Positions 30,718-47,673 of a stretch of 64,000 nt of DNA are shown piece by piece. The stretch's first letter is position 1. The number at the start of each line of letters is the position of its first letter. Made by a program: the position numbers and the translations under genes. Source of the stretch: an uncultured virus (IMG/VR IMGVR_UViG_3300037087_000281) (Duplodnaviria; Heunggongvirae; Uroviricota; Caudoviricetes); IMG/VR virus record IMGVR_UViG_3300037087_000281; one strand, given 5' to 3'. The notes beneath the pieces were generated by a model that saw only the letters and a list, made by a program, of their open reading frames with translations, was not told where the DNA came from and did not search any database.

Positions 30718-30736
30718 AGGTTTGCTTTCCTGTTAG

Positions 30737-31461: not shown

Positions 31462-33525
31462 TTACTCGCAGGCGGCTTTCAATAGCGCATCGCCGTCTAG
31501 CTCGATCTCTTTCTGATCAAAATGCCGCTGCAACCCGTCGGGGGTAACGAGGTGACCTTTTGACTGCGCCTTCCTACTGGTTTTTCCGATATAGTCTTTC
31601 AGTAATTCCTTCGACGGGATGGTTCCGATGCGGGTGGCATTTTCGTCGGTCAAGACGCCGACCTCGTGCTCGTTGGGATCTCCGCTGGAACCCCAAGTGG
31701 GAGGAGCCGAGGGCGCTCCCTGGCCGAAGATGGCCGGAATAGGTCCACAGAAGATCAGAGACCCTACCGCTCCGGTTTTGGAGTTGAACTTGGCACGGGT
31801 AGAGGCCACCCATGCCAAGTTCTTCTCGCTATCTTTCTCCCACTGCTTACGTGCCATGGGATGTGGGATTAGCTCAGGAGAGAGGATGAAAACTCGTTCC
31901 GCTTCGAGTCCCTTGCAGCGATGCACAGTTCCGAGCACTACCGCGTTGGCCTCGTCGTCGTCGTCCTTGAATAGTGACTCCAGGTTTTCGCGGATCTGTT
32001 GGACGGTCTTGGCATTGGCGATGAACTCCATCATGCACGAGCACTTGTCCATGAGGTTCTGCATGCGGCCCTCACCCTTTTCCTCCAGCTTGAGCAACCG
32101 CTCGGCCTCCTCACGACCGTAGATGCCGAGCTCCTCGCGGATGACGGCTAACTCGTCAGAGTATGTGGCGCGGGCGTTAGCATCCAGCCTCTCTACGGCC
32201 CGCTCCTCCAGCTTGTCGATCAGCTGGCGAAGACCCTTGCCGATGTCCTTGCCCTTGATCACCGGACGGATCTTGCGGCGGATGAGTGCATAGGCGACGC
32301 CGATCAGCTCGGCGTTGACCCGGCAGATCACTAGGTCACCGGCGGCCATCATCTCGACGGCCTTGTCCTTCTTCATCGAGAGGATCTCGCCCTCGGGTGC
32401 GTCGGGCAGCGCCTGGATGTTGGGGAACAGGTTCTGCGCCAACCGGACGTGGCTCTTGGGACAACGACGTGTGATGGTCAGCGGGAAAGTCTTAACGCCC
32501 AACGGACTGTTTTTCATTCTCTCGGTCAACTGGTCGATAGAATCAGACAAAGCGCCCCTGAAACTATAAATTGACTGTCTTTTGTCCCCGATTCCCATCA
32601 GGCGTCCGGCTCCGACTCGAAACATCAACTCGTGCTGACAGGCATTCAAATCCTGAAGTTCGTCGCTGATCATCAGCTGCGGAGCGAAGCGGGGTTTCAG
32701 GTCCAGCACGACCGGCAACCAAATCATGTCGTCGAAGTCAATCTTAGACGCAACGAGCTGCTTGCACTTGTCCAGCGCTGCGGGAACTATCAAGACCGCC
32801 TCGTTGAACTCCCCGTTGAAGTCCAGCGAGTGGTGGTCGGCCAGCCGCTCCATCTCGTCATGGAAGTTGGCGGCGTGATAGTCGATCAGGTAGTTCTTGA
32901 CGAAGCCGGCAAGCTTTTCCGCGAGGTTCAGCTTCATCCGCCACTGCCCCTTGCCGAAGATGGGAGCGGGGCAGAGGCCTTCGAAGATGTTCTGCATCTT
33001 CTTCTCGTCAGGGTCACCGAGATTCTTGAAGTGCTCCCGCAGAATGCCATAACCAAGGGAGTGGTAAGTGCGGGCGCGGGCGTTTGGCACCTTCGACGCA
33101 GCCAACTTTCCATTGGCCTCTTTGGCTATGTGGCGGTTGAAGGCGACGATGGTGATTTGCTGACTCTTCGGGGCACGCAGGCACCATTGGCAAGCAACCC
33201 AGGTCTTCCCCACGCCCGGACCGCTATCCACGATGATATGAGACTTTCCCTTCGCGAGGTAGTCCCAGATGGCTTCCTGCTCGTCAGAGCCGGGCATCTT
33301 GACCATCGGCTCGTAGCCCGCTCCGGCGGCGGGGACGAACTTGGTCTCCTCGCTGACCTTGCGGGTTCCCCGGCAGGACGGGAAGCGGCTGCAACCATAA
33401 AAGCTTCCACGTTGAGAAGTGCGGAGGGTCATCGGCCCGTCGCAATCCGGGCAGAGGACCTTGTCAGATGGCCCGCCCTTGGACTCGACGCGGACTTGCG
33501 CGGCGGTTCTCCAGTCAGTTGACAT
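31462..33525 (-). CDS. UvrD/Rep-like SF1 helicase with N-terminal topoisomerase-type C4 zinc ribbon
   Basis: CPDC...FYGCSRFPSC; GPGVGKT; DELQD; GDKRQSIYSFRGA; TVHRCKGLE; STRAK. Confidence 0.9.
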   Translation of the reverse strand: MSTDWRTAAQVRVESKGGPSDKVLCPDCDGPMTLRTSQRGSFYGCSRFPSCRGTRKVSEETKFVPAAGAGYEPMVKMPGSDEQEAIWDYLAKGKSHIIVDSGPGVGKTWVACQWCLRAPKSQQITIVAFNRHIAKEANGKLAASKVPNARARTYHSLGYGILREHFKNLGDPDEKKMQNIFEGLCPAPIFGKGQWRMKLNLAEKLAGFVKNYLIDYHAANFHDEMERLADHHSLDFNGEFNEAVLIVPAALDKCKQLVASKIDFDDMIWLPVVLDLKPRFAPQLMISDELQDLNACQHELMFRVGAGRLMGIGDKRQSIYSFRGALSDSIDQLTERMKNSPLGVKTFPLTITRRCPKSHVRLAQNLFPNIQALPDAPEGEILSMKKDKAVEMMAAGDLVICRVNAELIGVAYALIRRKIRPVIKGKDIGKGLRQLIDKLEERAVERLDANARATYSDELAVIREELGIYGREEAERLLKLEEKGEGRMQNLMDKCSCMMEFIANAKTVQQIRENLESLFKDDDDEANAVVLGTVHRCKGLEAERVFILSPELIPHPMARKQWEKDSEKNLAWVASTRAKFNSKTGAVGSLIFCGPIPAIFGQGAPSAPPTWGSSGDPNEHEVGVLTDENATRIGTIPSKELLKDYIGKTSRKAQSKGHLVTPDGLQRHFDQKEIELDGDALLKAACE

Positions 33526-33720
33526 TGTTCGCCTCAATTTCCAAAAGGTTTAGAGTTCGCCGCTGCCTGAGGTTTGGGTTTGCCTGGCAAGCGTCATCGA
33601 AAGCCATAGCGATCATTTCCCGGATATCTTCAGGAACGTAGACGGAGCACTGAGACAAGAGTCCTAGTGTTCCCAAATAGCGCATATGTTCGGACTCCAT
33701 TTGGTTTGCTTTCCTTGTAA

Positions 33721-33732
33721 ATTATACGGTTA
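33721..33732 (-). promoter_or_regulatory. CCGTATAAT promoter motif
   Basis: TAACCGTATAAT upstream of AAGGAAAGCAAACC. Confidence 0.65.
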
Positions 33733-34175
33733 GGTGGGATAAGACTTTCAGGACATCACCCTCAAAGCCCATTTGCTAACTGAAGTCTTCTTCGTCCGCT
33801 TCCGCACCAATGTCGTCTTCATCCTCGTCGTCCATCGGGTCGTCCGGCATGCTGTCGAAGTCCGTGAAGGCAGGCGCAGGCGGGGTCATGTGCGCCGCCA
33901 TGTGCTCCATCAGCGCCCCGCGTTTGCTCACCTCGGCGTCGGCTACTGGGACGGTCAGTCCCCTAGCCGTGATATTGCCCTGGGCGTCCTTGACCACGGC
34001 GCGGACCATGCCGCCACCAGTGCTCTGGTGCGCCTGGAAGACCAGCTGGTACCCGTTGCCGAGGTCCTGCGAGCTAAGGTCAGGCATTATTACCTCCATC
34101 CCCACTTGATTACCGCTCCGATGGCAAACCCAGACAAGAGGATCAGCCAGTCGGCAAAGGTCGTCTTTGGTCGGG

Positions 34176-34775
34176 TCACACGCACCCCACTTTCCGGACG
34201 CGAACGACGACCTCGCCGGTGCGGAGTATCTGCTCACCCTTTGGAGTCAGGACGTCTTTCGGCTTCGCGACCAATCGCTCCCGTGCGTAGCGGAGGGTTC
34301 GGCACGTCTGTTCAGCACGGCTCCAGTTTTTGTCTTCGATTTCTTTCCGAAGCTCTACGAGCATCTTGGCCTCTTCTTTCTCCACCTCGTGGATGGCATT
34401 GGCGGTCGGCGGAACGTTCGCGCGGGCGATCAGGTCGAGGAACCGCAAGCGGTCCATGACGTTCCCCGGCACGTGGCAGTGGACGGCATCGGGCTGCGCC
34501 AGACTGCGCAGGAACGCGAGGTCCTTTAGTTGCAGACGGACTTGCGGGATCTTGACTTCAATGCTTGGCCTGCTGAGGTCTTCCGTTTTGGTTTTTGGCA
34601 TATAGCTCCTGTATTGGAAATTCTTACTCGGGATAGGAAGGTAAGACGAAGGAGCATCGGCGCAGAGCGTCTTTTCTCCACAGTCCTCGCAAGCTCCATT
34701 CGAGGTGCCGAAGAAAGACGACTGTCTGTTAGCGTCCTTCATCCGGTGTTGGAAACACGGTTCGCATAAGAACAT
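34176..34775 (-). CDS. Hypothetical protein with N-terminal Cys cluster
   Basis: AAGGAGAGCAG SD; CEPC...CEDC. Confidence 0.55.
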   Translation of the reverse strand: MFLCEPCFQHRMKDANRQSSFFGTSNGACEDCGEKTLCADAPSSYLPIPSKNFQYRSYMPKTKTEDLSRPSIEVKIPQVRLQLKDLAFLRSLAQPDAVHCHVPGNVMDRLRFLDLIARANVPPTANAIHEVEKEEAKMLVELRKEIEDKNWSRAEQTCRTLRYARERLVAKPKDVLTPKGEQILRTGEVVVRVRKVGCV

Positions 34776-34791
34776 CTGCTCTCCTTTGGCT

Positions 34792-34864
34792 TTCGCCTTC
34801 GGCTCCTGATTAAATCATACGGGAGCCGATTCAACCCGTAGCCAACGGGCATCGTCAGGGCGAA
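34792..34864 (-). ncRNA. Type I hammerhead-like ribozyme (variant core)
   Basis: UUCGCC-CUGACGA-U-GCCCGU/ACGGGU-U-GAA-UCGGCUCC/GGAGCCGA-A-GGCGAA; intergenic, three stems around a CUGANGA/GAA core. Confidence 0.55.
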
Positions 34865-35241
34865 CTTACTCCGACTGGAGGATGTTGAAGCTGAACCCCT
34901 TCCTCCAGTTGTCCATAATCTTCTGGGCGAGGACGCGCAGGGCGGTCGCGTCCTCCACCTCGACCCTGAACGTCCGCTTGTGGGCCTTCTTCATCACTAC
35001 CGTCACCGGGAACTTCATCTTGCTCTCCTTTCATCTTAGTCCGGCAACAGCGCCCGAAGTTTGGCAGCTTTCAGCGCAGCGGTTGAAAGCTGATTGAGTT
35101 TCTTGTTGATCTGGCGAAGCTCGCGCTTCGCGTCTTCGTACAATGTTCCGCTGAGAGCAGGCGGCGGAAGCGGCTGAACGGTTTCCAGCGCTTTGAGCAG
35201 CACCACTTCCAACGCCTTCATGTAACGGATCTCGTCTCGGC

Positions 35242-35724
35242 TCATGCGACCTTCTCCTTGGCGGGCTCCAGCCAGCTGTCCCACCAATTGCACTCGGTGC
35301 ACTTCATGTACCAGCGGCCCTCGTTCGGTCCGCCGCCGGTCTTGAACGCCTTCATCTGGTGCTGGCACTTGGGGCAGTTTACCAGCTTGCGCCCGAAGGT
35401 CCAGAGGGCGCGGAGCACGTCGGTCAACCGCCGCTCCCATCCGCCGACGCGCGTCACCCAGCGCCCGTACTTCGAACCGAGGGGCTTGCCCTGCGGGTCC
35501 GCCAACCAGCATCGGATGGAATCCTTGGCGGCTTCGGCGGAGTGGCCGTCGGCTCCGACCGAGGAGCGGATGACGATGATGACTCCGGGCTTGACCGGGA
35601 GGTAGTATTGGTGCTCCCCGCTGATCAGTCCCGTATAGCCCCACAGCGGCGTGCGGGTCCCCTTGAGGCACGGCAGCGCGGCCTCGAACTGGGCACGGGA
35701 GAAGTGGTCCACGCTCATGCACAT
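35242..35724 (-). CDS. Hypothetical protein with C-terminal zinc ribbon
   Basis: CPKC...GPNEGRWYMKCTEC. Confidence 0.6.
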   Translation of the reverse strand: MCMSVDHFSRAQFEAALPCLKGTRTPLWGYTGLISGEHQYYLPVKPGVIIVIRSSVGADGHSAEAAKDSIRCWLADPQGKPLGSKYGRWVTRVGGWERRLTDVLRALWTFGRKLVNCPKCQHQMKAFKTGGGPNEGRWYMKCTECNWWDSWLEPAKEKVA

Positions 35725-36062
35725 GCCTCCTGAGCGACTTCCACGGATTGAATGGCTTTCAAATCCCAGATGCAGCCGGACGCGCAATCCCACCCGTAGT
35801 ACCAAGCAGTGTGGTAAGTCAACCGCCGCGCATAACAGTAAGGCGCGATGATGATGCCTTGGTGCTTGGCGGCGACCTTGGACCAGTCTATGTAATACAG
35901 ATAGTTTCCGCTGGGTTCGTCCCGAATGAAGTCGACACACCATCGCTTCCAGTCATCTTCAACGGAGATCCAGAATCCACGTGGTTTGAAACTATCTTTT
36001 TGCGAGTAAGATCGCTGGGCTAGTTCCAAGGGCGCTGCCGCGTAGTGAAAAAGATTGCTCAT
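35715..36062 (-). CDS. Hypothetical phage protein
   Basis: KPRGFWIS...IDWSKVA...GIII...WYYGWDCASGCIW. Confidence 0.6.
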   Translation of the reverse strand: MSNLFHYAAAPLELAQRSYSQKDSFKPRGFWISVEDDWKRWCVDFIRDEPSGNYLYYIDWSKVAAKHQGIIIAPYCYARRLTYHTAWYYGWDCASGCIWDLKAIQSVEVAQEACA

Positions 36063-36226
36063 CTAAACAACCTCCCGAATAAGCTGAGAACAACCCTGCC
36101 TGCCTTCCGCTCGCGGCCCGAGCGCGTTAGCGGGACACCGATTCGGCGGGATATCTTGCCCTTCAGCGCACTGATACCGACGACGCGCCGCCAACTGAAC
36201 GACATTCCAGGGATTCCGGTCTTCAT
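36059..36226 (-). CDS. Small basic conserved protein (GMSFSWRRVVGIS...GVPLTRSGRERK)
   Basis: GGAGG SD; ATGA overlap with upstream small ORF. Confidence 0.6.
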   Translation of the reverse strand: MKTGIPGMSFSWRRVVGISALKGKISRRIGVPLTRSGRERKAGRVVLSLFGRLFR

Positions 36227-36392
36227 TGGTCCTCCAAGTCTCCTGCCCGGTGACCGTCTTCCTCGCACCCTTTGGCGTGCTTCGGGCAGACGGGCTTGCT
36301 GTGCAAAGAGCAGATCTTGGTCGCCCGTTCGACGTGACCTTGGTCAAAACAGATGAAGCATTTGAGGAAGTAAAGTGGGTGCTCAATTTTCT

Positions 36393-37199
36393 TCATGCTT
36401 GTTCCTCCTTGACGGTCACACTCTCGATGGGGTTGATGGCCGGGGTGACGATCCGACGACCGGCCTTCATGTCCGCCCGTTTCTTTTTTCCGTAGTTAGG
36501 AGAAGCTGTTCCAGTAGGCATGCAAAAGGTGCCAGTAGGTAGATTGACCGCATCTTCTTGAGTCCAACCGCGTTTCAAGCGTCCATAAATTTTGTGTATG
36601 TCGATGCCCTTGATACGTGCCCATTCGGCGCATGTTTTTGTTTCTCCATTGGCAGTAACGAAACGGGTAATCCCTCGATTCTCCATCTGCTCACTTCGGT
36701 TCGCCCATCGAACATTACCGGGCTCATAATTTCCGTTTCTGTTCGGCCAGAGATCAATTGTGTGCTGCGGAGTAGGTTTTCGCCCCATGTAAGATAAGAA
36801 TTTTCCGAAGTCTTTTCGCCACGAACCGAACACTGTTTTTCCACTTCCTCCATAGCGGTCGTATGCAATGTTTTTAGGGTCATAGCATCGTGAGCGCATA
36901 GCAGTCCAACTTTTGTATTCGGTACTAACTTCCGTGACGCATCCTCCGTGTTTTATATGACTGATTCCCATCTGGGATATCACGCACTGATGGCACTGGA
37001 TGGATTTCCCTCGCTTCAGCTCCGTGCCAGACTGATCAATCTTCCTGCCGCAATCACATTTACAGCGGAAGGTGGTCCTCCCCTTGACTACTCCAAGGCA
37101 TTTGCGAATTGTCAGTTTCCCGAACCGCGTACCTACTGCGATGATCAATTTGTTTGCCACGTTTAAGTTTCTCCCAATTAAATTCCCACTCCGCGCCAC
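36393..37199 (-). CDS. HNH-like homing endonuclease (start uncertain)
   Basis: CKCDCG; YKSWTAMRSRC...RYGG; NGNYEPGNVRWA; AT-rich. Confidence 0.75.
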   Translation of the reverse strand: MARSGNLIGRNLNVANKLIIAVGTRFGKLTIRKCLGVVKGRTTFRCKCDCGRKIDQSGTELKRGKSIQCHQCVISQMGISHIKHGGCVTEVSTEYKSWTAMRSRCYDPKNIAYDRYGGSGKTVFGSWRKDFGKFLSYMGRKPTPQHTIDLWPNRNGNYEPGNVRWANRSEQMENRGITRFVTANGETKTCAEWARIKGIDIHKIYGRLKRGWTQEDAVNLPTGTFCMPTGTASPNYGKKKRADMKAGRRIVTPAINPIESVTVKEEQA

Positions 37200-37329
37200 A
37201 GCCGAGGCAGGTCACGTGAGTCGGCCCCCGGCGCTGAAAGCAGTTGAGGTTTCCCACCCGGCGCAGAGACTGAGGGAACGTCATCCGCTGGTGGAGGCAA
37301 CCGAACAGGGACTCCAGCAGCTTGATCAC
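37060..37329 (-). CDS. Small Cys/His protein (LFGCLH...TFP...VTCLGCG), 3' end overlapped by HNH gene
   Basis: Motif pattern; coupled to upstream small ORF. Confidence 0.5.
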   Translation of the reverse strand: MIKLLESLFGCLHQRMTFPQSLRRVGNLNCFQRRGPTHVTCLGCGAEWEFNWEKLKRGKQIDHRSRYAVRETDNSQMPWSSQGEDHLPL

Positions 37330-37501
37330 GGCTCCCTCCGCATCCTTAGGTGAACAATCCCCTTCGGGCTCCCAATGGCGTCTGGCAGGGAGTCTCCGGC
37401 TTTCACGTGATCGGCTGCCATCTGGAGCAGGCGGGCGGCTTCTTGCCGCTCGACCGGCTCCGCGGACTCTGTAATATAGACGAACAGCTCGATTTTCAGC
37501 A

Positions 37502-37717
37502 TCAGCAAACCTCCAGGCGTTGAGACTGATAACGCCCCTGCCTCAGCGGAGCCGAGTGCGGGAATCGAACGTCATACGCGTAGTGGGAGTAGAGCGACCC
37601 GTCCGGCGCGTAACCAGCCATCCACCGAATCCGGCGGACGACCCCGGTCAAGCGACCTTCGTGCTTTCCGCTGAGAACTTTTACGCGTTGCCCCACGGTC
37701 AAAATGTTGATCTTCAT
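37502..37717 (-). CDS. Small KOW/SH3-like protein
   Basis: AAGGAGAGCAA SD; VGQRVKVLSGKHEG. Confidence 0.55.
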   Translation of the reverse strand: MKINILTVGQRVKVLSGKHEGRLTGVVRRIRWMAGYAPDGSLYSHYAYDVRFPHSAPLRQGRYQSQRLEVC

Positions 37718-37795
37718 TTGCTCTCCTTCATGCGCTCTCCCTTGTTTGTTTTTGTGCGGTCGGGAGGAGCAAGGAGAGCGCCGAACCCCTCCCGA

Positions 37796-37870
37796 CCGTT
37801 TCACTCTGCGTTTGCACGGGCTTGTGACCGTTCCCGGCGGGTGATTTGCCTACCAGAAGCCGCATTACGG
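37796..37870 (-). ncRNA. Twister ribozyme A (type P1, with P3 hairpin)
   Basis: CCG-UAA-UGCG-GC-[hairpin]-CGG-UCACAAGC-CCG-UGCAAA-CGCA-GA-GUG-AAA-CGG. Confidence 0.85.
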
Positions 37871-38004
37871 GGATTGGATACCCCGCTAGGATGGCCCTTG
37901 CCGTCACCCCGCTCAGCTATCTCGCTCAGCTCGACTAGCTCCGTGCGGCTGAAGTACAACCGCTGGTCCGGGTCGGTGGTAAGCAGTCGTTGAATCTGTA
38001 CCAT
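37801..38004 (-). CDS. Small hypothetical protein whose 3' end overlaps twister A
   Basis: AAGGAGAGCAAAC SD, ATG 38004. Confidence 0.45.
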   Translation of the reverse strand: MVQIQRLLTTDPDQRLYFSRTELVELSEIAERGDGKGHPSGVSNPRNAASGRQITRRERSQARANAE

Positions 38005-38014
38005 TGTTTGCTCT

Positions 38015-38072
38015 CCTTCCCATCCGCTTTCCACCTCCCCGACTTTGGACGGGGCATCGGCGCGTTGGAAGG
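38015..38072 (-). ncRNA. Twister-like ribozyme E (variant, 3-bp P2)
   Basis: CCUUC-CAA-CGC-GC-CGAUG-CCCCG-UCCAAAGU-CGGGG-...-GCG-GA-UGG-GAAGG. Confidence 0.7.
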
Positions 38073-38130
38073 CCCGCCGTCCGGGTCTGAAGTGGGCGGC
38101 GAGTTCGTCCTCCCGTCGGTAGGACGGGCA

Positions 38131-38220
38131 CTAGGTCTTACGGGTGTTCTTCGCCCCGCAGTAGGGGCAGTTGCGGTAGCCGGTTACTTTCCGGCACTTG
38201 GTGCAGACTCTTATTGCCAT
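38131..38220 (-). CDS. 29-aa zinc-ribbon microprotein
   Basis: AAAGGAGAG SD; MAIRVCTKCRKVTGYRNCPYCGAKNTRKT*. Confidence 0.55.
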   Translation of the reverse strand: MAIRVCTKCRKVTGYRNCPYCGAKNTRKT

Positions 38221-38238
38221 TGACTCTCCTTTCTAATT

Positions 38239-38481
38239 TTAGGGTCTTGCAGTCTTCAGTGGGACGCCCTCGGCGAGGCATCCTTCCAGGTCCAGCGAGC
38301 GGGCGCTGTAGCTGAGGGCGTCCGGATGCCCGTCGGCCATCTTCTCGAACGCCACTTGGTTGTCCCGGCGGACGTAGAGGACCAGCTCGGCCTTGGTCCC
38401 GGTGTTGGCGACCACTTTCTCGCAAAGACCCACGGGGAGGATGGTGCCGGGCTTGCGCATCTGGACTTGGTAGCGGATCAT
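38239..38481 (-). CDS. Hypothetical protein
   Basis: AAGGAGAGCAAACC SD, ATG 38481. Confidence 0.6.
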   Translation of the reverse strand: MIRYQVQMRKPGTILPVGLCEKVVANTGTKAELVLYVRRDNQVAFEKMADGHPDALSYSARSLDLEGCLAEGVPLKTARP

Positions 38482-38504
38482 TGGTTTGCTCTCCTTTTTG
38501 ATTT

Positions 38505-38551
38505 CCACTCTGCGTTATGCGCGGGCTTGTGACCGCCGTTGGCCGCATTAC
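38505..38551 (-). ncRNA. Twister ribozyme B (core intact, P1 not evident)
   Basis: UAA-UGCG-GC-CAACG-GCGG-UCACAAGC-CCGC-GCAUAA-CGCA-GA-GUG. Confidence 0.8.
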
Positions 38552-38595
38552 AGTAGGACGAGCCGCTCGCCCGCCCTACGCATCACCTCCTGTGG

Positions 38596-39333
38596 TTAGT
38601 CGCTGAGTGTTACGGGTTGTCCCGTCTCGCGGTACCTGCGAATGATCTTGGCCTTGCTCTCCGGGGAGAGGCGCTCGAAGGCCTCCGTCATCTCCCAGTT
38701 GGTCTCCGTCGGCGTATGGCCTGCCTTGATGTCCTCCTGGATGCGCTTGAAATGCTCCGGCTCCCCGACGCTCATCAGCGAGAGGTCGAAGGTCCGCGTC
38801 TCATCCAACATGCGTACGGCGGGGGCGGGAGTGACGATGATGGATGATTGCCGCGCGGGGTCTTTAGCGTGAGCCAAGTCCTTCCAATGATCCGGATAGT
38901 TACATCCGCATTTGCATTTTTCTGGTAGAGATGCGGAGAACTTCTTGCTGGGCGGGTTGAACTTGATGGGAGCTGGAGGCTTGTTGCCATTGACGATGGG
39001 TGCGGGCGGTTTGCCGTTGGTCATGTCCCAGTAGATGCCGTTCGGGTCGACCTTTTTGCTCCGCGTGCTCGCGCTCCCGCTGTACCCGAAGGCGTGGTCC
39101 GCCTTGTCCGGCACCGGGGGGTTGTACTTCAGACTACCGACCGGAGGCTTGGGGAAGGCCTCGGCGGCCTCGGCCAGATGCGGGCGGATCGCGTCGAGGA
39201 GATCGGAGACCTCGACGGCGGCGTTGGAGCAGTTCTCCCATTCACCCTCGCGCGCAGCGGTGATCGCACAAGACAGGTGTGAGGCGATGATCTTGAGGCG
39301 ATGGGAAGCTTCGGATCGTGTTATCAATCCCAT
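38596..39333 (-). CDS. Hypothetical protein with short tandem NGKPPAPI repeat
   Basis: 245-aa ORF with GGAGG SD. Confidence 0.55.
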   Translation of the reverse strand: MGLITRSEASHRLKIIASHLSCAITAAREGEWENCSNAAVEVSDLLDAIRPHLAEAAEAFPKPPVGSLKYNPPVPDKADHAFGYSGSASTRSKKVDPNGIYWDMTNGKPPAPIVNGNKPPAPIKFNPPSKKFSASLPEKCKCGCNYPDHWKDLAHAKDPARQSSIIVTPAPAVRMLDETRTFDLSLMSVGEPEHFKRIQEDIKAGHTPTETNWEMTEAFERLSPESKAKIIRRYRETGQPVTLSD

Positions 39334-39627
39334 CTAACCCCTCCCGTGAATGCAGAGGCACTCGCTGCCCGAACTGCAAGCCGGGCAGGTGCACTGGTCA
39401 TCATCCCGATAGTGACGCTTGGAAGATGCGGGACGCGCCGAGGGCTTCACCGCGCAGATGAAAGTGGTCGCGTCGTGCCAGAGGACCCGCTCCACGATCT
39501 CGCTCTTTGTCTCTCCGCTCCGCTTGGAGACGATAACGGTCGTGCCGACGGCCACGCTGCTCGGTGAGTTGAATGTCACGCGGATGCCCCAGTCTCCGCT
39601 CTTCAGTTTGGTGTATGTTGCGGTCAT
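39334..39627 (-). CDS. Small protein with Cys-rich tail, paralog of 43403-43729
   Basis: ATYTKLKSGDWGIR...DDDQCTCPACSSGSECLCIHGRG. Confidence 0.7.
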   Translation of the reverse strand: MTATYTKLKSGDWGIRVTFNSPSSVAVGTTVIVSKRSGETKSEIVERVLWHDATTFICAVKPSARPASSKRHYRDDDQCTCPACSSGSECLCIHGRG

Positions 39628-39639
39628 AAGGTTTGCTCT

Positions 39640-39700
39640 CCTTTTCCATCCGCTTTCTGCCCTCCGGACTTTGGACCGGACGTACGGCGCGTTCAAAAGG
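39640..39700 (-). ncRNA. Twister-like ribozyme F (variant, 3-bp P2)
   Basis: CCUUUU-GAA-CGC-GC-CGUACG-UCCGG-UCCAAAGU-CCGGA-...-GCG-GA-UGG-AAAAGG. Confidence 0.7.
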
Positions 39701-39746
39701 AATATGGGGAACGGGAGGCTGACCCTGCCCGTCCCCTTGGTTCGGC

Positions 39747-40526
39747 TTACTCGTGGGCGACGTAGCGCCGCTCGCCAGCCTTGTTCTTGACGGCGTCGAT
39801 CTTCACGCCCTTCGCGCGGGAGTTGGACACGAAGCTCTGCGCGCTGGGGACCGTCCACCCGCCCGCGGCGGCGATCTCCTCGATAGTCGCGCCGGTCTTC
39901 CGCGACATCAGCGCGAGGGCGGCGGCTCCACCACCGGCCTTCTTCGCGGCCTTCGGGGCGGCTTTGGCGGTCTTCTTCGCGGGCGGGGCTGCCTTTTTTG
40001 CGGTAGGCGCGGGTTTGGCCGCCTTCTTTGCGGCGGTCTTCTTAGAGGCTCCGGCGGCGATCGGCGGAGCGGCGTTCACGGGGGTGTTAACTTCGGCGTT
40101 GGAATCCATTTTGATTTGTCCTTTTTCAGAAATTTTCAAGCACTGGTTGGAGCAGTACTCACCGCTCCTGCCTCTCCAGCAGAGGGTCACTTGCTTACCG
40201 CATCCGCGGCGGTCGCAGAACTTTCGGGCGATGCCCGAGGTTCCAAAATCTTCGGCGGTCACTTCCATCTTCGTCTCCTCGGCGAGGATTTCGCACGCGG
40301 CGTGGTACACGCGGCCGTCCCGCGTGCGCATCGCGCCGTCCAGCCTGACGAGGTGCTCGCAGACGCAGCACTCGCGTACGGAGCTCCCCTTCTTCCCGTC
40401 CTTCGCGTCGACGAAGTCGTTGATGCACTTCCGGGAGCAGAACTCGAGGTCGCTCTTGAAGAGCTTGTACGGAACCGCTCCGACGGCGTTCGGGCACCCC
40501 TGCATCGAGCAGGCCTTGTGGGTCAT
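39747..40526 (-). CDS. Zinc-finger + Lys/Ala histone-like + DUF3489-like wHTH protein
   Basis: AAGGAGG SD; FCSRKC, YCSNQC; KKAAK repeats; GATIEEIAAAGGW. Confidence 0.65.
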   Translation of the reverse strand: MTHKACSMQGCPNAVGAVPYKLFKSDLEFCSRKCINDFVDAKDGKKGSSVRECCVCEHLVRLDGAMRTRDGRVYHAACEILAEETKMEVTAEDFGTSGIARKFCDRRGCGKQVTLCWRGRSGEYCSNQCLKISEKGQIKMDSNAEVNTPVNAAPPIAAGASKKTAAKKAAKPAPTAKKAAPPAKKTAKAAPKAAKKAGGGAAALALMSRKTGATIEEIAAAGGWTVPSAQSFVSNSRAKGVKIDAVKNKAGERRYVAHE

Positions 40527-40535
40527 CGTCCTCCT

Positions 40536-40590
40536 TCCCCATCCGTCTTCTCTCACCCTCGGCTTTGGACGAGGCGTCGGTGCGTTAGGA
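40536..40590 (-). ncRNA. Twister-like element G (degenerate variant)
   Basis: UCC-UAA-CGC-AC-CGACG-CCUCG-UCCAAAGC-CGAGG-...-ACG-GA-UGG-GGA; mismatches in P2 and T2. Confidence 0.5.
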
Positions 40591-40620
40591 GAGAGGGGCC
40601 TTTCGGACCCCTCTCGATTC

Positions 40621-41616
40621 TCAGGCGGAGTACGTCTTCGCGCCACCTGCGTTGGAGGCGTTGATGACGATGCCTTTCTTGCGGGTGTTGGACACGAAGC
40701 TCTGGAGGGATCCGAGCGTCCAGCCGGTCGCGGCGAGCAGCGAGTTGACGGTCGCGCCGCCGGGTTGCCGCATCAGCGCGAGGGCGGCGGCTCCCTTGTC
40801 TCGCGGGAGCGCCCCGTTGGGGGCCACGCGGGCGGCGCGGTTCCCAGAGGCGCGCGAGGCCTTCGCTCCGGCGGCGGCCACCGGCTTGCCGACAGGCTTC
40901 ATGACTTTATCCGACCCGGCCGCCCACGCGTAGACCGCATTGAGCACGTTCGGGAGGGTCTCCATGAACTTGTTGCCGTCGAATGCCTGCTCACCGTTGA
41001 CGTCCGTCGCGATGGACACAAATCGTGCGACGGTGGTGGCCTCGGCCAAGATGGTCTTCAGCGGAGGTTCGCCGACCATCAGGTTGAGCTCCGTGCGAGG
41101 CACCAGGATTTCACCCTCCAGGAACTCACGGTCGGCGTTGAACGTCATCCGGAAGTTAACGCCGAAGCTTTTGAAAGCGTCGTTGAAGTTGGCGAGGACC
41201 CGTTGGACGTTGGTGACGTTTTGCCCGGGAGCAACCGCATCATCTACTTTCGGTAGGCTCTTGCCGCTCCAGATCTGCTCGTAGAGGCGGATGGCCTTCT
41301 CCAAGAACGTGGCCTTCTCCTGCGGATACGGGGTCGAGTCGCCGACGCCCTTGACCTTTACGGCCATGTCGTAGGACTTCTGCTGTGCGGGGTTGAGCGC
41401 CGCTTGGTAGAGCAGTGGGCTGGGGCCGTTGGCCGGGCAGATTGCCTCCGCGTACCACTCGTGCGCCAGCTTCAGGCTGGTTAGCCGGTCGACCGACATC
41501 CACTCGTATGCTGCCGTCAGGCCGGCAAGGTTCAGCGTGGGGACCGCCGCGACGATGGCCGCCGGGGGCGCATATCCGGCGTAGGTGCTTCGCCGTCCGT
41601 AGTTTCTTCGTGCCAT
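40621..41616 (-). CDS. Hypothetical protein with C-terminal DUF3489-like wHTH
   Basis: AALALMRQPGGATVNSLLAATGW; AAGGAGAGCAAACC SD. Confidence 0.65.
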   Translation of the reverse strand: MARRNYGRRSTYAGYAPPAAIVAAVPTLNLAGLTAAYEWMSVDRLTSLKLAHEWYAEAICPANGPSPLLYQAALNPAQQKSYDMAVKVKGVGDSTPYPQEKATFLEKAIRLYEQIWSGKSLPKVDDAVAPGQNVTNVQRVLANFNDAFKSFGVNFRMTFNADREFLEGEILVPRTELNLMVGEPPLKTILAEATTVARFVSIATDVNGEQAFDGNKFMETLPNVLNAVYAWAAGSDKVMKPVGKPVAAAGAKASRASGNRAARVAPNGALPRDKGAAALALMRQPGGATVNSLLAATGWTLGSLQSFVSNTRKKGIVINASNAGGAKTYSA

Positions 41617-41634
41617 GGGTTTGCTCTCCTTTGT

Positions 41635-41696
41635 GCGAGGGGCTTGAGACCTCGCTTGCCGCATTACGGCACGTCTCTCGACGTTCCGCTCTCTGC
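41635..41696 (-). ncRNA. Twister ribozyme C (circularly permuted, P5-type)
   Basis: GCA-GA-GAG-CGG[hairpin]CCG-UAA-UGC-G-GC-AA-GCGAGG-UCUCAAGCC-CCUCGC. Confidence 0.8.
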
Positions 41697-42673
41697 TAGA
41701 CCGATGCCGGGGGAAGGCACAATCTGTGCACTGCCTCGACGAACTTCGTCTCGAACGCGGCTTCCGTGTTAACCACAACGCACTCCCCGCCGAGCGCCGC
41801 GCAAGCCGCCTTCAACGCGTCGTTGGGGTTCTCGTCGCCGATGTGGATGTAGTCGAGGATGATGCCGGACTGCTTGAGCACCGGCACCCATTCGGGGAGG
41901 ACGTTCGTGCCGCTGTCACCGCCGTCAGAGACGACAATAAAGTGATGAAGGCCAACCGAACTGGGGTGCTTGCGGCAGCACTCGACGCCTGCACGGATAG
42001 ACGCCATGATGTCTGTCCCGCCGGAGTTGACGCTGTCCATGCCGACCTGGATTCGGTCAACCACTGCGCGGACCTCGTCCGCCGTGCCCGAGTCGAAGAC
42101 AACCTTTGCGCCAGCCCCGAAGGCGATCACCGCAAGGGAAGACTGTGGGAACTTGGCGAAGCGTGCTTCGATCTCCTGCTTGGCGAGCTTGGCGACCAGC
42201 TCGATGCGGGAGGGCGGCTGCATGTGCGGCTTGCTCCAGTCGATCGCGACGTGGAAGCTGCCGATCAGGTCGTGCTGGATGACGCGGGTCTTGATCTCCT
42301 CGTCTGTGACCGTGAAGGTTGGCGGCATGCCGGGAACCAAGGGGTCGATCATCTTGATGATTTCCTGCTGTTCCCACCCGAGGTCTTGGCCGCTCATCAC
42401 TACCGCGATGGCGTCGGCGACTTTCGCGCGGATGCTTGCCAGCCTCTCGGGCGTCCAGAGGTACTGGTCGGCGAAGCCCTTCTTGTTCTTGTCGGCGGCG
42501 ATCCGCTCGCTCATGCTGCCGGACACGTCGAAGCAGAAGACCAGCTTGGCGAACTCAGAATAAACATCTCCAAGCTTGCGAAGGACCGAGTTGCCGTTGG
42601 TTTGTAGGGATTCAGTTTTTCGAAGAACGATATCATTCGTCCCTTTGAAGATCATGCTGTTGTCAAGTTTCAT
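41696..42673 (-). CDS. von Willebrand factor A domain protein
   Basis: FCFDVSGSM (MIDAS), GGTDI, IVVSDG. Confidence 0.85.
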   Translation of the reverse strand: MKLDNSMIFKGTNDIVLRKTESLQTNGNSVLRKLGDVYSEFAKLVFCFDVSGSMSERIAADKNKKGFADQYLWTPERLASIRAKVADAIAVVMSGQDLGWEQQEIIKMIDPLVPGMPPTFTVTDEEIKTRVIQHDLIGSFHVAIDWSKPHMQPPSRIELVAKLAKQEIEARFAKFPQSSLAVIAFGAGAKVVFDSGTADEVRAVVDRIQVGMDSVNSGGTDIMASIRAGVECCRKHPSSVGLHHFIVVSDGGDSGTNVLPEWVPVLKQSGIILDYIHIGDENPNDALKAACAALGGECVVVNTEAAFETKFVEAVHRLCLPPASV

Positions 42674-43308
42674 TTTGCTCTCCTTTTTCCAACCAGTCGG
42701 CATCGCTTTGCTTGAGCAGCGCGCCGCTCTGGAGTCCATCTTAATTTGCTGTTCTTGATTCGATTCTCTCTGACTTCTGGGTCTTTCCAACTTTCGCTGG
42801 TAGTCTTAGCCAACTTCTTTTTGGTTGCTTTGGAAAGCTGATGCCCAGGCTGAAACGTTCCGGCATTAGGCCCGTGCCGTAAAACTCCTTCTCGTATCTT
42901 TTGCTTCTGGGCTTCTGGAAGCGGCTTTCCTTTTCGCTTGGCGGCGGAGATCATTCCTGCGCGCCGCATCGACGCTTGACGCTCTCGGAGGATTTTTCCT
43001 TTGAGTCTCTTCCCCCGGCGTTCGGCGCTCCACTTCTGTTTTTGCGCTTTGCTGTGGTAGTGCTTGCCGATATGATGGATGCGACTGTGCTCGCTCTTTG
43101 TCATCAGTTGAAGATTGCTGATCCGGTTGTTCATGATGTTTTCATCTATGTGGTGAACCACCTCGTCCTTTCGGAGGAGGCGTTTGATGCGGTTTATCAT
43201 CTTCAACCGGTGCTGCGCGATCTTGGTTCCGTCCGGGAGGAGAGGGTGGCCATAAACTTTGACCATCAAATAACCTTCGCCTTCATATCCAGCCCGCTTC
43301 GTCTTCAT
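42670..43308 (-). CDS. HNH homing endonuclease with NUMOD3-like tail
   Basis: QHRL...EVVHHIDENIMNNRISNLQLMTKSEH; own GCTATAAT and AGGAGG upstream. Confidence 0.88.
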   Translation of the reverse strand: MKTKRAGYEGEGYLMVKVYGHPLLPDGTKIAQHRLKMINRIKRLLRKDEVVHHIDENIMNNRISNLQLMTKSEHSRIHHIGKHYHSKAQKQKWSAERRGKRLKGKILRERQASMRRAGMISAAKRKGKPLPEAQKQKIREGVLRHGPNAGTFQPGHQLSKATKKKLAKTTSESWKDPEVRENRIKNSKLRWTPERRAAQAKRCRLVGKRRAK

Positions 43309-43344
43309 ATACGCCTCCTAGCTTTATTATAGCCCGGAGAATGC

Positions 43345-43399
43345 GGACGGGCTTGGAACCGTCCAGCCGCATTACAGGGCCGAAGCCTTGTCCTCTGCG
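43345..43399 (-). ncRNA. Twister ribozyme D (circularly permuted, P5-type)
   Basis: CGCA-GA-GGA-CAAGGC(UUCG)GCCCUG-UAA-UGCG-GC-U-GGACGG-UUCCAAGC-CCGUCC. Confidence 0.88.
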
Positions 43400-43402
43400 C
43401 CG

Positions 43403-43729
43403 TCAGCCGCGCCCGTAGATGCAGAGGCACTCGCTGCCGGAGCTGCACTGCGGGCACGTGCATTGGTCATCATCGTTGCGGTATCGGCGACGCCCCGAGT
43501 AAGAGAATGCTGATGCCGTCCGCGCGATGGAGCAGAGACTGACGGTCTGCCCGCTCTTGCTGTCGGTTCCGGTCCAGAGGACCTTGCTGATGGTTTCTGT
43601 CTTGGATGTTCCATCCCGCTTCGTGACTGTGACGGAAGCTCCCGCCGAAAGTTTGCCGGCCGCTCGAATGCCCCACGATCCGTCGCGGAGCTGAGTATAC
43701 GTTGCTTTCGCTGTTGTTGCTGTACTCAT
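43403..43729 (-). CDS. Small protein with Cys-rich tail, first gene of early operon
   Basis: ATYTQLRDGSWGIR...DDDQCTCPQCSSGSECLCIYGRG; AAGGAGAGCAAAC SD. Confidence 0.7.
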   Translation of the reverse strand: MSTATTAKATYTQLRDGSWGIRAAGKLSAGASVTVTKRDGTSKTETISKVLWTGTDSKSGQTVSLCSIARTASAFSYSGRRRYRNDDDQCTCPQCSSGSECLCIYGRG

Positions 43730-43750
43730 ACGTTTGCTCTCCTTGAAAAT

Positions 43751-43815
43751 CTGTCCCGCCCGTTTTCTTCCCCCGCAACTACGGATGCGGCGTCGGCACG
43801 TTCGACGGGCGACAG
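43751..43815 (-). ncRNA. Twister-like element H (variant)
   Basis: GAA-CGU-GC-CGACG-CCGCA-UCCGUAGU-UGCGG-...-ACG-GG-CGG within CUGUC/GACAG stem. Confidence 0.5.
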
Positions 43816-44299
43816 CGGCGATTAGCGGCTGCGCCCTGATTTCGTTTGGTGTTGTTTCGATTTGTTTTTTGCGTCATCGGGCCGTGGGATCCCCGTTTCA
43901 ATCTCGGGTGGCCTTCGCCGTTCTTGTGGATAACCTAATCACCTTACGTAACGCCATGCCAAGCTCTATGCCATTCGACTCGTGCGTTGACGAGTGCCGG
44001 TTGAGAATCTCCAATCCGTGGTGGATAAAGCTGGAGTCTTACGTTGGCGGCGCATTGCCGCCCCGGCGTGGACCGTGGGTTCCTGTGATGACGGGGGTTT
44101 AGGTTTACCGTGGGAACTATTCAGATTTCAAAAATCTCTTGGAGACGCTTGAGGCCGGCGTTGGTGACGTGAAGATCTGTAGCGAACATCGTCTCGACGT
44201 TCCTGCTTCACCTGCCACCGGGTGTTCCACCCGAGGTTTCAAGCCGCTTGCTATCGCCGCTTTCCGCCCGCCGGTCTTTTTGATTACTCCGTGCTGCCT

Positions 44300-44370
44300 T
44301 ACTTCTTTAATATATACTCGTTTTTGTGGAAAGTACACAAGTTTTTTGAATTATTTTCAGATTATTTTCC
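44300..44370 (-). promoter_or_regulatory. Probable strong sigma70-type early promoter with AT-rich UP region
   Basis: AAAATAATCTGAAAATAATTCAAAAAACTTGTGTACTTTCCACAAAAACGAGTATATATT in a GC-rich genome, upstream of the small-gene operon. Confidence 0.6.
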
Positions 44371-44609
44371 GGGAGACCAAAGGCCGGAGGGCGGCGCGGA
44401 AACCGCGTATATATAGATGGCGCGGCGCGAGTCATGCGGACCTCCAGGAGGCGTCTCCGAGGGAATCCCATAGGAAACGGTTAGGCGCGCCGCCGCGATC
44501 CATCCTGGGGCTCCGCAGGAGGCCGGGTGAACCGTTCCGTCAAGTTCTGACTCCGAGATCGTTGATTTTTAACAAGTTCTCGATCCATGTGAAAACTCAA
44601 ACCTTTGGT

Positions 44610-45110
44610 TTAAGTCCGTTGAGAGAATCGGCGGCCCCACTCCGCTATCAGGAGCGCTTCTGCCCTGTTATGATCTCGTTTTCGGTCCAGATCCGCGCAG
44701 GATGGGAACAGCTGGAGCGCCCGGACGATGGAGGCGTTCTTGTCGGCCCCAGCAGGAATGAGCAAGTCCTTCTTCCACCGCGCGGGCTCGACTCGCGTAA
44801 CCGGGACGCGGAGCACGGCGAGGATGCCAAGCCAGAGACCCAGGCCCATGCCCTGAGAAAACCCGCCGACGCTCCCGGTGCGGGGCATCGCGTGAAGGTT
44901 CTCGATGGTGACTTGGACATCACCTCCGGCGGACTTGACGATCGCTTCTATTAGCGTCGCCATCGGCCCGTCGCAGTAGGCGGTGCGGCTTTTCTTGCCA
45001 GTCTTGACGACGACTGTGGGGATGTCTTGGAGGGAGACGATCCGACCTTTCGTATCGAGAGCGGCGACAGCCCCGGTGCAGCCACAGTCGATCCCAATGT
45101 GCAATTTCAC
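44610..45110 (-). CDS. RuvC-like Holliday junction resolvase
   Basis: IGIDCGCTGAVA...TIEN...PARWKK...NRAEALLIA. Confidence 0.85.
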   Translation of the reverse strand: MKLHIGIDCGCTGAVAALDTKGRIVSLQDIPTVVVKTGKKSRTAYCDGPMATLIEAIVKSAGGDVQVTIENLHAMPRTGSVGGFSQGMGLGLWLGILAVLRVPVTRVEPARWKKDLLIPAGADKNASIVRALQLFPSCADLDRKRDHNRAEALLIAEWGRRFSQRT

Positions 45111-45284
45111 TTGCCAGTCTCCTTGTGCGCGGCCACATCTGCGGCATCATTTGAGTTGGCCTGCACAAATCCCATCACTCCCAATACGAGTGCGATTGGT
45201 AGTGCCGGGAATAGCACGTCTCGGCCAAATCCATCCATCAGCACAACTCCAGCGGCGATCCCACAAACTAGTGGGTAGTAGTGC

Positions 45285-46547
45285 TTAAGCGGCATCTTTG
45301 GACTCCCTGTGCGCGGCCACGAAGGTGGCGGCACGGTCCAGGCGTCGGTTTAGCTCCCCCCACGACTGTGGGCCATCCATGTAACCTTGGATGATATCTA
45401 CCGCCTCCGCGAGTGCCGCCTCCGCCTTCTCCCGAGCAGAATTCAGCGCGTCCATATCTTTCCGCAGTCGCGCGTTGTCTTCGATCAGCACTTCCCGTGC
45501 GGCCTTCTCGGCGGCGAGGTCAGCACGGAGTTGAACAATCTCTACTTCTGGGTGTCCTTCCCAGAAAGTGAATAACATCTCCCTCATCATGTCTGAGTGC
45601 TCATGTAGTTTATCTGCCTTCAGCCGCTCGTTCTCCACCCGCAATTCCTCCACAGCCTTTACCAATTCCGGGATTGGATAGTCTCCGGTCCCGTGGAACT
45701 GCCTGTGGGGCATGATGGCGCTAGCCAAGGCGTCCAAATTCACTCGCAGCATGAGCTTCTGAGCATCCCGGTTTACGAGTTGCCGAAGGGCTTCATCGCG
45801 CTCTGCTGTCATGGTCAGCGCGTAAGCCGCACTGCCTTCGTGGACAACAGGCTGGCAGGGGCAGGAGGTGGCGAGAGCAACATCACGCTGTTGTGCCAAT
45901 TGAAACTCTTCCCGCGCGTCCACACCGTGAAACCATTCCCACGAGTCTTCCAGCGCCTTCCTGACGGCACATTCGGGAGCATTCACCGATGGCACAAGTT
46001 GCTTCGCCGCTGCGATGCCTACCGCGTGCTCCGCATCTGTCGCGGTCTCATAGGCGTATTCATCAGACGCCCCGGCAGCCATCCTCACAGCGCACTCGGG
46101 GGGATGCACTACGGCAGCCATCGCCATTTGGCTTTGAGGTCCCAGTTCCACACGATCAATGACCACAGATATATCGTCAACAGGTCCATGAATCCCGCTA
46201 TTACCCACATCCACCACGGCATTATCATCTCCTTCTCCTTTGGCACACTCGTAGGAGACAGATGCCCCGGCAGCGTCCTGCTGTGCCGCCGGGGCATCGT
46301 TACATCCCGGCGAATGGTTGACATTTGTCGGGCATGGGGCATCACCTCCTTCCAGTTTCATCCATACATCCAATCTTTCTCTCGTGACGACGGAACGCCA
46401 CGGTTGGTGCGCCAGCAGCCAATCAAACTGCTCCACGTCCCGCCGCATCTCTTCCAATGCGACCAATGCTGCTTGGTACCGGACCGCATACCCAGTATCG
46501 AGTACATGGTTGTTGATGAATGCCATTACCTTTTGGTAGTTACTCAT
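45285..46547 (-). CDS. Hypothetical mosaic coiled-coil protein
   Basis: ATGA overlap at 46547; 420-aa ORF. Confidence 0.5.
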   Translation of the reverse strand: MSNYQKVMAFINNHVLDTGYAVRYQAALVALEEMRRDVEQFDWLLAHQPWRSVVTRERLDVWMKLEGGDAPCPTNVNHSPGCNDAPAAQQDAAGASVSYECAKGEGDDNAVVDVGNSGIHGPVDDISVVIDRVELGPQSQMAMAAVVHPPECAVRMAAGASDEYAYETATDAEHAVGIAAAKQLVPSVNAPECAVRKALEDSWEWFHGVDAREEFQLAQQRDVALATSCPCQPVVHEGSAAYALTMTAERDEALRQLVNRDAQKLMLRVNLDALASAIMPHRQFHGTGDYPIPELVKAVEELRVENERLKADKLHEHSDMMREMLFTFWEGHPEVEIVQLRADLAAEKAAREVLIEDNARLRKDMDALNSAREKAEAALAEAVDIIQGYMDGPQSWGELNRRLDRAATFVAAHRESKDAA

Positions 46548-46912
46548 TTCTTGTCTCCAAATTTTAGTGTGAGCCACTGACCGATGTAATCCGCGATGCT
46601 GTGTACGCTCGGGATGTCCGGCTTGCCTGTGAAACCTGCAGGCTCGAACTTGAGCCCTGTCAGCTTGCTGGCAATCTCTTGTATTGGAACCCCACGCTGA
46701 AAGGCTAAAGAAATGACCAGCGCCAGCGCGTGGCACAGGCCGCGCTCGAAAGACCCAGCATGATCGAATGTCAGGAAGACCTCGCCGGGAGTCTTGTCTT
46801 GGTAAAGACCTACGGTGATATAGCCTTCCAAATCCTTCTCTGGAGGTGAGCGCTTGATGTGCAGCTTGCGAGTGATGGAATCCCGCTCGACGGGCATGGG
46901 TCGTCTGTTCAT
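46544..46912 (-). CDS. TSCPD-domain protein (class II ribonucleotide reductase C-terminal-like)
   Basis: YITVGLY...PGEVF...ISLAFQRGVP...FEPAGFT...SIADYI. Confidence 0.8.
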   Translation of the reverse strand: MNRRPMPVERDSITRKLHIKRSPPEKDLEGYITVGLYQDKTPGEVFLTFDHAGSFERGLCHALALVISLAFQRGVPIQEIASKLTGLKFEPAGFTGKPDIPSVHSIADYIGQWLTLKFGDKK

Positions 46913-47274: not shown

Positions 47275-47289
47275 AATTTTCCTGTTTTA

Positions 47290-47300
47290 ATTATACGGTC
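47290..47300 (-). promoter_or_regulatory. CCGTATAAT promoter motif
   Basis: GACCGTATAATTAAAACAGGAAAATTATG. Confidence 0.6.
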
Positions 47301-47671: not shown

Positions 47672-47673
47672 AA

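Follow-up and report, generated by a model that had tools for sequence, protein, structure and literature searches.

In the 64,000-nucleotide stretch of viral DNA analysed here (the window), ribozyme-like elements sit immediately before genes, and in two of them, F and E, one strand of the P1 stem coincides with part of a ribosome-binding site, which raises the question whether self-cleavage controls translation of the genes behind them. The initial annotation had proposed that cleavage releases the 5' strand of P1 and exposes the Shine-Dalgarno (SD) sequence, coupling translation to processing. The geometry of that proposal is confirmed below for E and F; however, the layout is more likely a general cut-then-translate arrangement than a switch, with a predicted effect that is small.

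P1 strands within Shine-Dalgarno sites

All genes around F, E and a third element, G, lie on the minus strand. F, a putative variant type-P1 twister-like ribozyme, spans 39634..39705 (minus strand; Rfam, our covariance model R1 and minimum-energy fold). Its P1 pairs a 5' strand CCUUUU (39700-39695) with a 3' strand AAAAGG (39645-39640) around the core AACGC...CGGAUGG (39693-39646); the expected cut is G39694/A39693, and the N-1 nucleotide G39694 is unpaired. In the ViennaRNA fold this helix is lengthened to 7 bp (UCCUUUU/AAAAGGA), the longest P1 in the subclass described below. The translation start region of the F gene (39625..39643, minus strand; from sequence, open reading frame and unpaired probabilities) consists of the SD AAGGAG (39643-39638), a 10-nt spacer that includes CCUU, and the AUG at 39627-39625, from which an ORF of 97 aa extends (39334..39627). 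The SD bases taken up by P1 are AAGG, or AAGGA if the 7-bp helix forms.

E, likewise a putative variant twister-like ribozyme, spans 38008..38078 (minus strand; R1 and fold), with P1 CCUUC (38072-38068)/GAAGG (38019-38015), a core at 38066-38020 and C38067 as N-1, which places the expected cut at C38067/A38066. The SD AAGGAG (38018-38013) precedes the AUG at 38004 and has its AAGG within P1. The P1 3' strands of E and F provide 4-5 of the 6 SD bases of genes 38004 and 39627, and the two overlaps described in the initial annotation agree with both coordinates and folds. The putative variant twister-like element G (40527..40598, minus strand; R1 and fold) was described there as having a P1 that abuts AAGGAGG. 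Once a strong upstream hairpin forms, P1 of G is short (UCC 40590-40588/GGA 40538-40536) and has a single base, 40536, in common with the SD (AAGGAGG 40536-40530; AUG 40526), so that "abuts" is indeed the right term. P2 of G is weak, with two Watson-Crick pairs plus C.A and with pair 17/60 unpaired. Minimum-energy folding recovered P1, P2 and P4 unprompted for E, F and G.

Since the SD of E and F lies in P1 and its partner strand is located 5' of the expected scissile bond, cleavage would shift the partner to another molecule. A physical coupling of cutting to SD exposure is plausible in E and F.

A candidate divergent twister subclass

At gathering thresholds, an Rfam 15 search of the whole window reported one twister, at 43399-43347 (Twister-P5). 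The E-value mode (E<=10), applied to 30000-50000, returned seven matches, five of them twister-type (elements A, B, C, D and F) and one passing its gathering score. F was matched at 39698-39642 as twister-P1 with 24.3 bits (E 0.27) versus a gathering score of 67.2, and E, G and a further element, H, gave no match at E<=10 in this interval. Positions 1-30000 contain two weak, unrelated Rfam matches and nothing else. Twister-sister, pistol, hatchet and hammerhead were considered for E and F and rejected, as none was reported by Rfam at E<=10 and the T1 and T2 registers fit twister.

E, F and G have a common skeleton, AACGC[G/A]CC followed by a hairpin with the loop UCCAAAG[U/C] and by CGGAUGG; the pattern gave two exact matches in the window against 0 expected, and G was found separately. 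With this skeleton we scanned three public collections. Among seven stretches in viral_contigs, two are independent members (L005 and L006), two belong to a near-identical phage and three were rejected for want of the hairpin. The metagenome_contigs collection gave at least 121 stretches, with at least 20 member loci after hairpin filtering and inspection, and genome_contigs gave 95 stretches, of which five passed a crude hairpin filter and none of these five matched R1, leaving no members.

R1 was built from 21 sequences, among them E, F and G, which as training members match by construction (69.9, 63.6 and 63.5 bits, respectively). Outside the training set, R1 found H (43744..43814, minus strand; 38.3 bits, E 1.7e-9), a putative fourth variant copy of the subclass that is absent from the initial annotation. 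Over 33 sources, the model matched the window four times and all 19 candidate loci, and gave no match in 13 doubtful loci. We rejected one weak additional R1 match, at 27810-27907 on the plus strand (11.4 bits, E 0.68), which is without the conserved loop and unlikely to be a ribozyme; it adjoins the sole plus-strand exact copy of GGAGAGCAAA.

Members among the matches listed were aligned (alignment A2; 24 rows, 23 distinct). Paired cells amount to 89.3% versus 77.3% in shuffles, and the covariation score to 0.331 versus 0.142; in each case 0 of 500 shuffles reached the observed value, and sliding the partners lowers pairing to 24-44%. Changes on both sides are seen in 11 pairs, including all five of P1; the P4 pairs covary, and the covariation of P1 and P4 spans 22 distinct elements among the matches listed. 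With both sides changing in 5/5 P1 pairs and no shuffle scoring as high, P1, as judged from this alignment, is not chance complementarity.

The T1 pseudoknot, formed by the P4 loop with the 3' strand of the P1/P2 internal loop (columns 36-38/65-67), is 100% paired and AA directly follows the expected cut in 24/24 rows (columns 13-14), in an alignment whose core columns, T1 included and H aside, were fixed by the search pattern, so that the evidence free of this constraint is that of P1, P4, H and the R/Y pair. At the third T1 pair, 21 rows have A-U and H has G-C (C-G in the Rfam consensus); this change is compensatory, as is the one to U-A at a P2 pair of H. C-G does not vary in T2. At the second position, where the pattern allowed all four combinations, 14 rows have G.U, eight have A.C and none is Watson-Crick. 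This second position corresponds to A2 columns 18 and 42 (39688 and 39667 in F), and both states are found in each of two sub-lineages, a pattern expected of a pair with wobble geometry. At N-1, most rows have U, whereas F, H and L011 have G and E has C.

The element order common to E, F, G and H is that of the type-P1 twister (RF03160, clan CL00120, as described in passages of PMC6154101), namely P1, N^AA, P2, T2 strand, P4 hairpin (conserved in its loop), AAA, P2', T1 strand and P1'. The A 3' of the cut, for which the same passages describe a catalytic role, and the T1 register, by way of its compensatory change, are also as in RF03160. Unlike RF03160, the subclass has a P2 of three pairs, A-U as the third T1 pair (G-C in H), G.U or A.C as the second T2 pair and the P4 loop UCCAAAGY, and it scores far under the gathering threshold. 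None of 13 metagenomic members reached the gathering score, and only L011 was reported (25.2 bits, E<=1). The architecture suggests that E, F, G and H are twister-fold RNAs of a divergent subclass missed by Rfam 15; with Rfam matches low (F, 24.3 bits) or absent (E, G and H), it is from the architecture that we infer self-cleavage.

The low scores could also mean that E, F and G are inactive, twister-derived structured RNAs whose P1 is a leader hairpin that tunes translation, possibly acting as 5'-end stabilisers or protein-binding elements. The absence of any Watson-Crick pair at the second T2 position and the weakened P2 of G are in line with such a loss of function. However, both pseudoknot registers are retained, as are the A-A past the expected cut and AAG in the P4 loop; the compensatory changes of H in T1 and P2 argue for selection on the full twister fold, and four canonical twisters occur in the same intergenic role. 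We regard inactivity as very unlikely, and E, F, G and H are discussed below as putative ribozymes.

Eight twister-type elements in one operon

Eight twister-type elements, four canonical and four divergent, lie within 43814-37798 (about 6 kb), occupying nearly every intergenic gap, each directly upstream of a ribosome-binding site. At most of these sites the phage-wide motif AAGGAGAGCAAA is present; on the minus strand it is represented by eight exact copies of GGAGAGCAAA and by 19 matches at <=1 mismatch versus 5.5 expected.

The canonical elements are all on the minus strand. A (43347..43399) is a twister of the P5-type permutation (RF02684, 49.7 bits versus a gathering score of 37.6) and lies between gene 43729..43403 and an HNH gene. 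B (41637..41697), also P5-type, scores 36.4 bits with RF02684, just below gathering (37.6); it begins at the UAG codon that ends the VWA-domain gene, and its 3' end is 5 nt before the SD of gene 41616. C (38502..38554) is a twister core in type-P1 order (RF03160, 36.8 bits versus gathering 67.2) without a clear P1, the P1 positions being unpaired in the Rfam alignment, and the SD of gene 38481 follows about 10 nt downstream. D (37798..37871), a core with a P3 stem (RF03160, 43.8 bits), sits within the 3' end of ORF 38004..37801. This 67-aa ORF behind E has a strong ribosome-binding site, reads through D and ends in a UGA stop at the 3' end of D, and cutting at U37867/A37866 would strip the stop codon from its mRNA. 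H, with P1 GUC/GAC, has its SD about 11 nt further 3' without overlap, and precedes gene 43729, a paralogue of the F gene. Neither in H nor in the canonical A, B, C and D is the SD placed in a ribozyme stem.

The genes of the operon include two HNH endonucleases, one VWA-domain protein and two DUF3489 proteins, and the other operon genes searched gave no family match past the cut-off. The paralogues behind H and F (43729-43403 and 39627-39334), each of which follows a variant twister, have the C-terminal motif CTCPxCSSGSECLCIxGRG in common; in the family search they gave only a sub-threshold match to DUF7573. We assume a single transcript across the operon, based on gene orientation and a simple consensus scan, in which no terminator-like site was found between these genes on the minus strand. 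The sole minus-strand terminator-like match, 41797-41780, falls within the VWA gene, and the sole minus-strand promoter-like site, 44593-44565, is upstream of H, in a consensus scan that is uninformative for phage promoters.

A module of stop codon, GC-rich hairpin, P1 5' strand, ribozyme core, ribosome-binding site and start codon is repeated along the operon. The hairpin of F is located at 39707..39736 (minus strand), between the stop of gene 40526..39747 and the P1 5' strand; similar minus-strand hairpins precede G (about 40615-40591) and E (about 38103-38073), as well as H and C. In the 50 nt before the cut, the hairpin z-scores are -3.1 (F), -2.9 (H), -2.6 (C), -1.8 (G) and -1.5 (E), the hairpin of G reaching -20.6 kcal/mol, and folding gave no significant hairpin in this interval for A, B and D. 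The hairpin ends 3-12 nt from the cut in H, G, F, C and E and in the metagenomic members L011, L018, L024, L025, L027 and L039. It has an SD-like 5' arm made up of purines (AAGGGGA, GAAGGGG, GAGAGGGG) and a pyrimidine-rich 3' arm (CCCCUU/CCCCUC) that leads directly into the P1 5' strand. In L039 this 3' arm and the P1 5' strand overlap fully, and hairpin and P1 exclude each other; in the isolated 5' fragment of E, folding pairs CCUUCC with the upstream GGGAGG.

A near-identical IMG/VR contig exists and was the sole match when a 245-aa protein was used in a related-locus search. The DNA of the window also occurs in peat metagenomes, and contigs from four peat DNA runs were compared with it. Contigs covering F and G list no differences inside either element, and thus offer no natural variation by which co-change of P1 and SD could be tested. 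In one strain the whole E cassette is exchanged: at 37900-38233, a contig of this strain carries 291 unrelated letters instead of E, the first part of the gene behind it and the last part of a 29-aa zinc-ribbon gene. The P3 loop of D (37837-37855) is hypervariable among strains. The HNH gene 43308..42670 is missing from the contigs of two of the peat runs, which have about 137 other letters instead (window 42557-43339), and hence represents a strain-variable insertion directly after A.

Recurrence of the P1-SD fusion

The arrangement of ribozyme and start site was scored by eye in the 22 distinct elements among the matches listed. The P1 3' strand overlaps a GGAG-type SD in five (E, F, L011, L027 and L039) and abuts the SD in one (G); the SD follows 11-40 nt further on in four (H, L018, L024 and L025), and the remaining 12 have an A-rich leader with no clear SD and the first AUG 14-29 nt past the core. 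Whether or not an SD is used, all 22 lie about 12-46 nt before a start codon (starts assigned by eye). The overlapping cases all carry the ribosome-binding motif of the window phage, and in E, L011, L027 and L039 the GGAUGG of the core is followed directly by GAAGGAGAGCAAA, with P4 stems and T2 states that differ; the proteins downstream of these four are unrelated, except that those of L027 and L039 are orthologues. L018, L024 and L025 come from one unrelated metagenome contig of 15.8 kb, a second ribozyme array with at least three full subclass copies and one cut-off copy in about 2 kb; in each of the three, a hairpin precedes the ribozyme and the SD follows 25-40 nt later.

The proximity of all 22 elements to start codons allows for the overlap being a by-product of packing, in which a ribozyme in need of a P1 within a short gap would have taken the A/G-rich run found ahead of every SD in this phage as its P1 3' strand. 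Translation would be unaffected, since ribosomes would load only once cleavage is complete. AAGGAGAGCAAA is a ribosome-binding site of the whole phage, found also at genes without an adjacent ribozyme (42673 and 37717), and the gap before the F gene measures 119 nt, of which hairpin and ribozyme already take about 90 nt. The overlap should, however, cost the ribozyme, because its P1 strand would be contested by the 30S subunit, and yet five diverged copies retain it. In the same phage, H tolerates 11 extra bases. We consider packing an unlikely explanation of the overlap.

Alternatively, the overlap may be a selected device by which ribozyme cleavage gates translation of genes 39627 and 38004, with the role of a timer or quality check, or of a sensor for conditions that alter twister folding (Mg2+, temperature). 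The five elements that retain it have diverged and precede at least four non-homologous genes (those of E, F, L011 and L027/L039), and P1 CCUUC/GAAGG is invariant in four elements despite divergence of P4, while F has the 7-bp P1 noted above. This invariance may, however, reflect only a fixed SD together with the ribozyme's own need for P1, and the second SD-using lineage (L018, L024 and L025) has its SD well away from P1.

Predicted Shine-Dalgarno accessibility

The cost of opening the 6-base SD was computed with ViennaRNA for nested structures only, with pseudoknots ignored, using 120 nt upstream and 30 nt downstream. Cleavage is predicted to lower this cost from 3.87 to 2.51 kcal/mol in E, from 4.77 to 3.25 kcal/mol in F and from 3.68 to 1.45 kcal/mol in G, a drop of 1.4-2.2 kcal/mol, and to leave H (0.77 and 0.61 kcal/mol), B (0.99 and 1.02 kcal/mol) and C (1.76 and 1.75 kcal/mol) unchanged. 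For A (6.89 and 6.74 kcal/mol), the predicted mask is other local structure, both before and after cleavage, and D goes from 2.52 to 3.19 kcal/mol. When the P1 5' strand alone is barred from pairing, the cost is 2.40 (E), 2.91 (F) and 2.65 kcal/mol (G). Four ribozyme-free genes of the same region have opening costs of 1.41-4.97 kcal/mol, a range that includes the uncleaved costs of E and F, so that the "masked" values are not unusual. Furthermore, AAGG of F is predicted to re-pair after cleavage with the CCUU before the AUG, with unpaired probabilities of 0.01-0.17. The intermolecular P1 duplex is predicted at -7.6 kcal/mol for F and -11.1 kcal/mol for E, and release of the E strand may therefore not be instantaneous.

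No sensor or ligand domain was found in E, F or G, which have no P3 or P5 insertion and linkers of only 4-6 nt and 9-11 nt, and Rfam reported no riboswitch family in the window. Twister cutting is predicted at about 1000 per minute under physiological conditions (passages of PMC6154101), so that masking of the SD would be brief.

These predictions bear directly on whether the overlap is a selected device. In its favor, the P1 5' strand adjoins, or overlaps with, the 3' arm of a hairpin that has an SD-like 5' arm; this hairpin could capture the strand after cleavage and make release of the SD irreversible, and an engineered analogue of the arrangement functions. Against it, an input domain is absent, rapid cutting is expected, the predicted effect is small and inside the background of other genes, and H, which precedes the paralogue of the F gene, and A-D keep the SD out of ribozyme stems. 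Such a device is possible, if on the doubtful side. The freeing of the P1 strand and exposure of the SD by cleavage, as inferred in the initial annotation, agrees with the geometry of E and F. The missing sensor domain, the expected fast cutting, the small predicted energy drop, the predicted re-pairing in F and the non-overlapping H and A-D speak against a selected control point.

Proposed mechanism

The explanation that we favor, with about even confidence, is constitutive processing of a polycistronic RNA, in which the P1-SD overlap contributes at most a modest, input-less coupling of cutting before translation. In this model, 43814-37798 (minus strand) would be one phage transcription unit with eight twister-type self-cleaving ribozymes, each of which would, constitutively and rapidly, cleave the polycistronic RNA immediately 5' of the conserved AA. 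The upstream piece would be left with a hairpin end and a 2',3'-cyclic phosphate, and the downstream piece with a 5'-OH ribozyme body and its own ribosome-binding site directly after, such that each cistron would become a separate, context-insulated mRNA. In E, F and the three metagenomic relatives with an overlap, the SD would be partly masked in any precursor that is uncut or misfolded, and would be opened by cutting once the partner strand of the 5-7-bp P1 is lost. We read this coupling as following from the tight fusion of ribozyme and ribosome-binding site rather than from a regulated switch, because there is no input domain, cutting should be fast, the energies are small and unexceptional, and sibling elements do not overlap.

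A bolder version, which we put forward only tentatively and think rather unlikely, is a natural, input-less process-then-translate module, conserved in a peat-phage lineage, in which cleavage would pass the masking strand on to the upstream hairpin at its SD-like purine arm. A single cleavage event would, irreversibly, give the upstream mRNA a capped 3' end and make the downstream ribosome-binding site accessible; the module would rest on an uncatalogued twister subclass with a wobble-only T2 pair.

The operon is a compact natural test bed for the biological role of bacterial and phage twisters. It contains matched elements with and without the SD in a ribozyme stem: F can be set against H, the genes behind these two being paralogues, and E and F against the four canonical elements. 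The operon further contributes a twister subclass, of putative activity, that is missed by current Rfam models.

Comparison with known systems

The ribozyme insulator RiboJ has an extra 3' hairpin to expose the ribosome-binding site, and no such extra hairpin is seen in the window elements. RiboJ is placed before ribosome-binding sites (PMC6206723), and as in the elements described here, a self-cleaving ribozyme directly 5' of the site removes the upstream context and leaves a structured 5' end. Compared with RiboJ, which is synthetic, hammerhead-based and used once per gene, eight natural twisters are located in one operon.

Processing of polycistronic mRNA by bacterial hammerheads and twisters has only been suggested, in passages of a 2019 review (PMC6765202). 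The present elements resemble that proposal in being intergenic in a phage-related operon and in the prospect of transcripts that differ in stability or translation; an overlap of a ribozyme stem with an SD is not mentioned in those passages.

In Schistosoma, T-variant twisters at the 5' end of the Perere-3 retrotransposon link cleavage to downstream translation, and NAA with any N has been assayed (passages of PMC8501958). There, too, the twister is in the 5' leader and the P1 5' strand comes from flanking sequence. Unlike E and F, the Perere-3 system is eukaryotic, has no SD, and its mechanism is tied to retrotransposition.

A further parallel is engineered. The initial annotation had noted that the SD-in-stem design is familiar from engineering, and this is in agreement with passages of Felletti et al. 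2016 (PMC5052635), where the SD was placed in twister stem P1 or P3 in E. coli and the active ribozyme differed from the inactive one 5-fold (P1) or about 100-fold (P3); the P1 format had low absolute expression because ribozyme structure stays beside the SD. In openly accessible article texts, we found engineered SD-in-stem ribozymes and no natural phage or bacterial twister case. In the engineered "type P1 SD" twister, as described in those passages, the SD is the P1 3' strand and the anti-SD the 5' strand, as in E and F; unlike it, E and F are natural, cover 4-5 of the 6 SD bases, and have no aptamer and hence no input. If cutting is needed for translation here, E and F would be a natural counterpart of a design so far known from synthetic biology.
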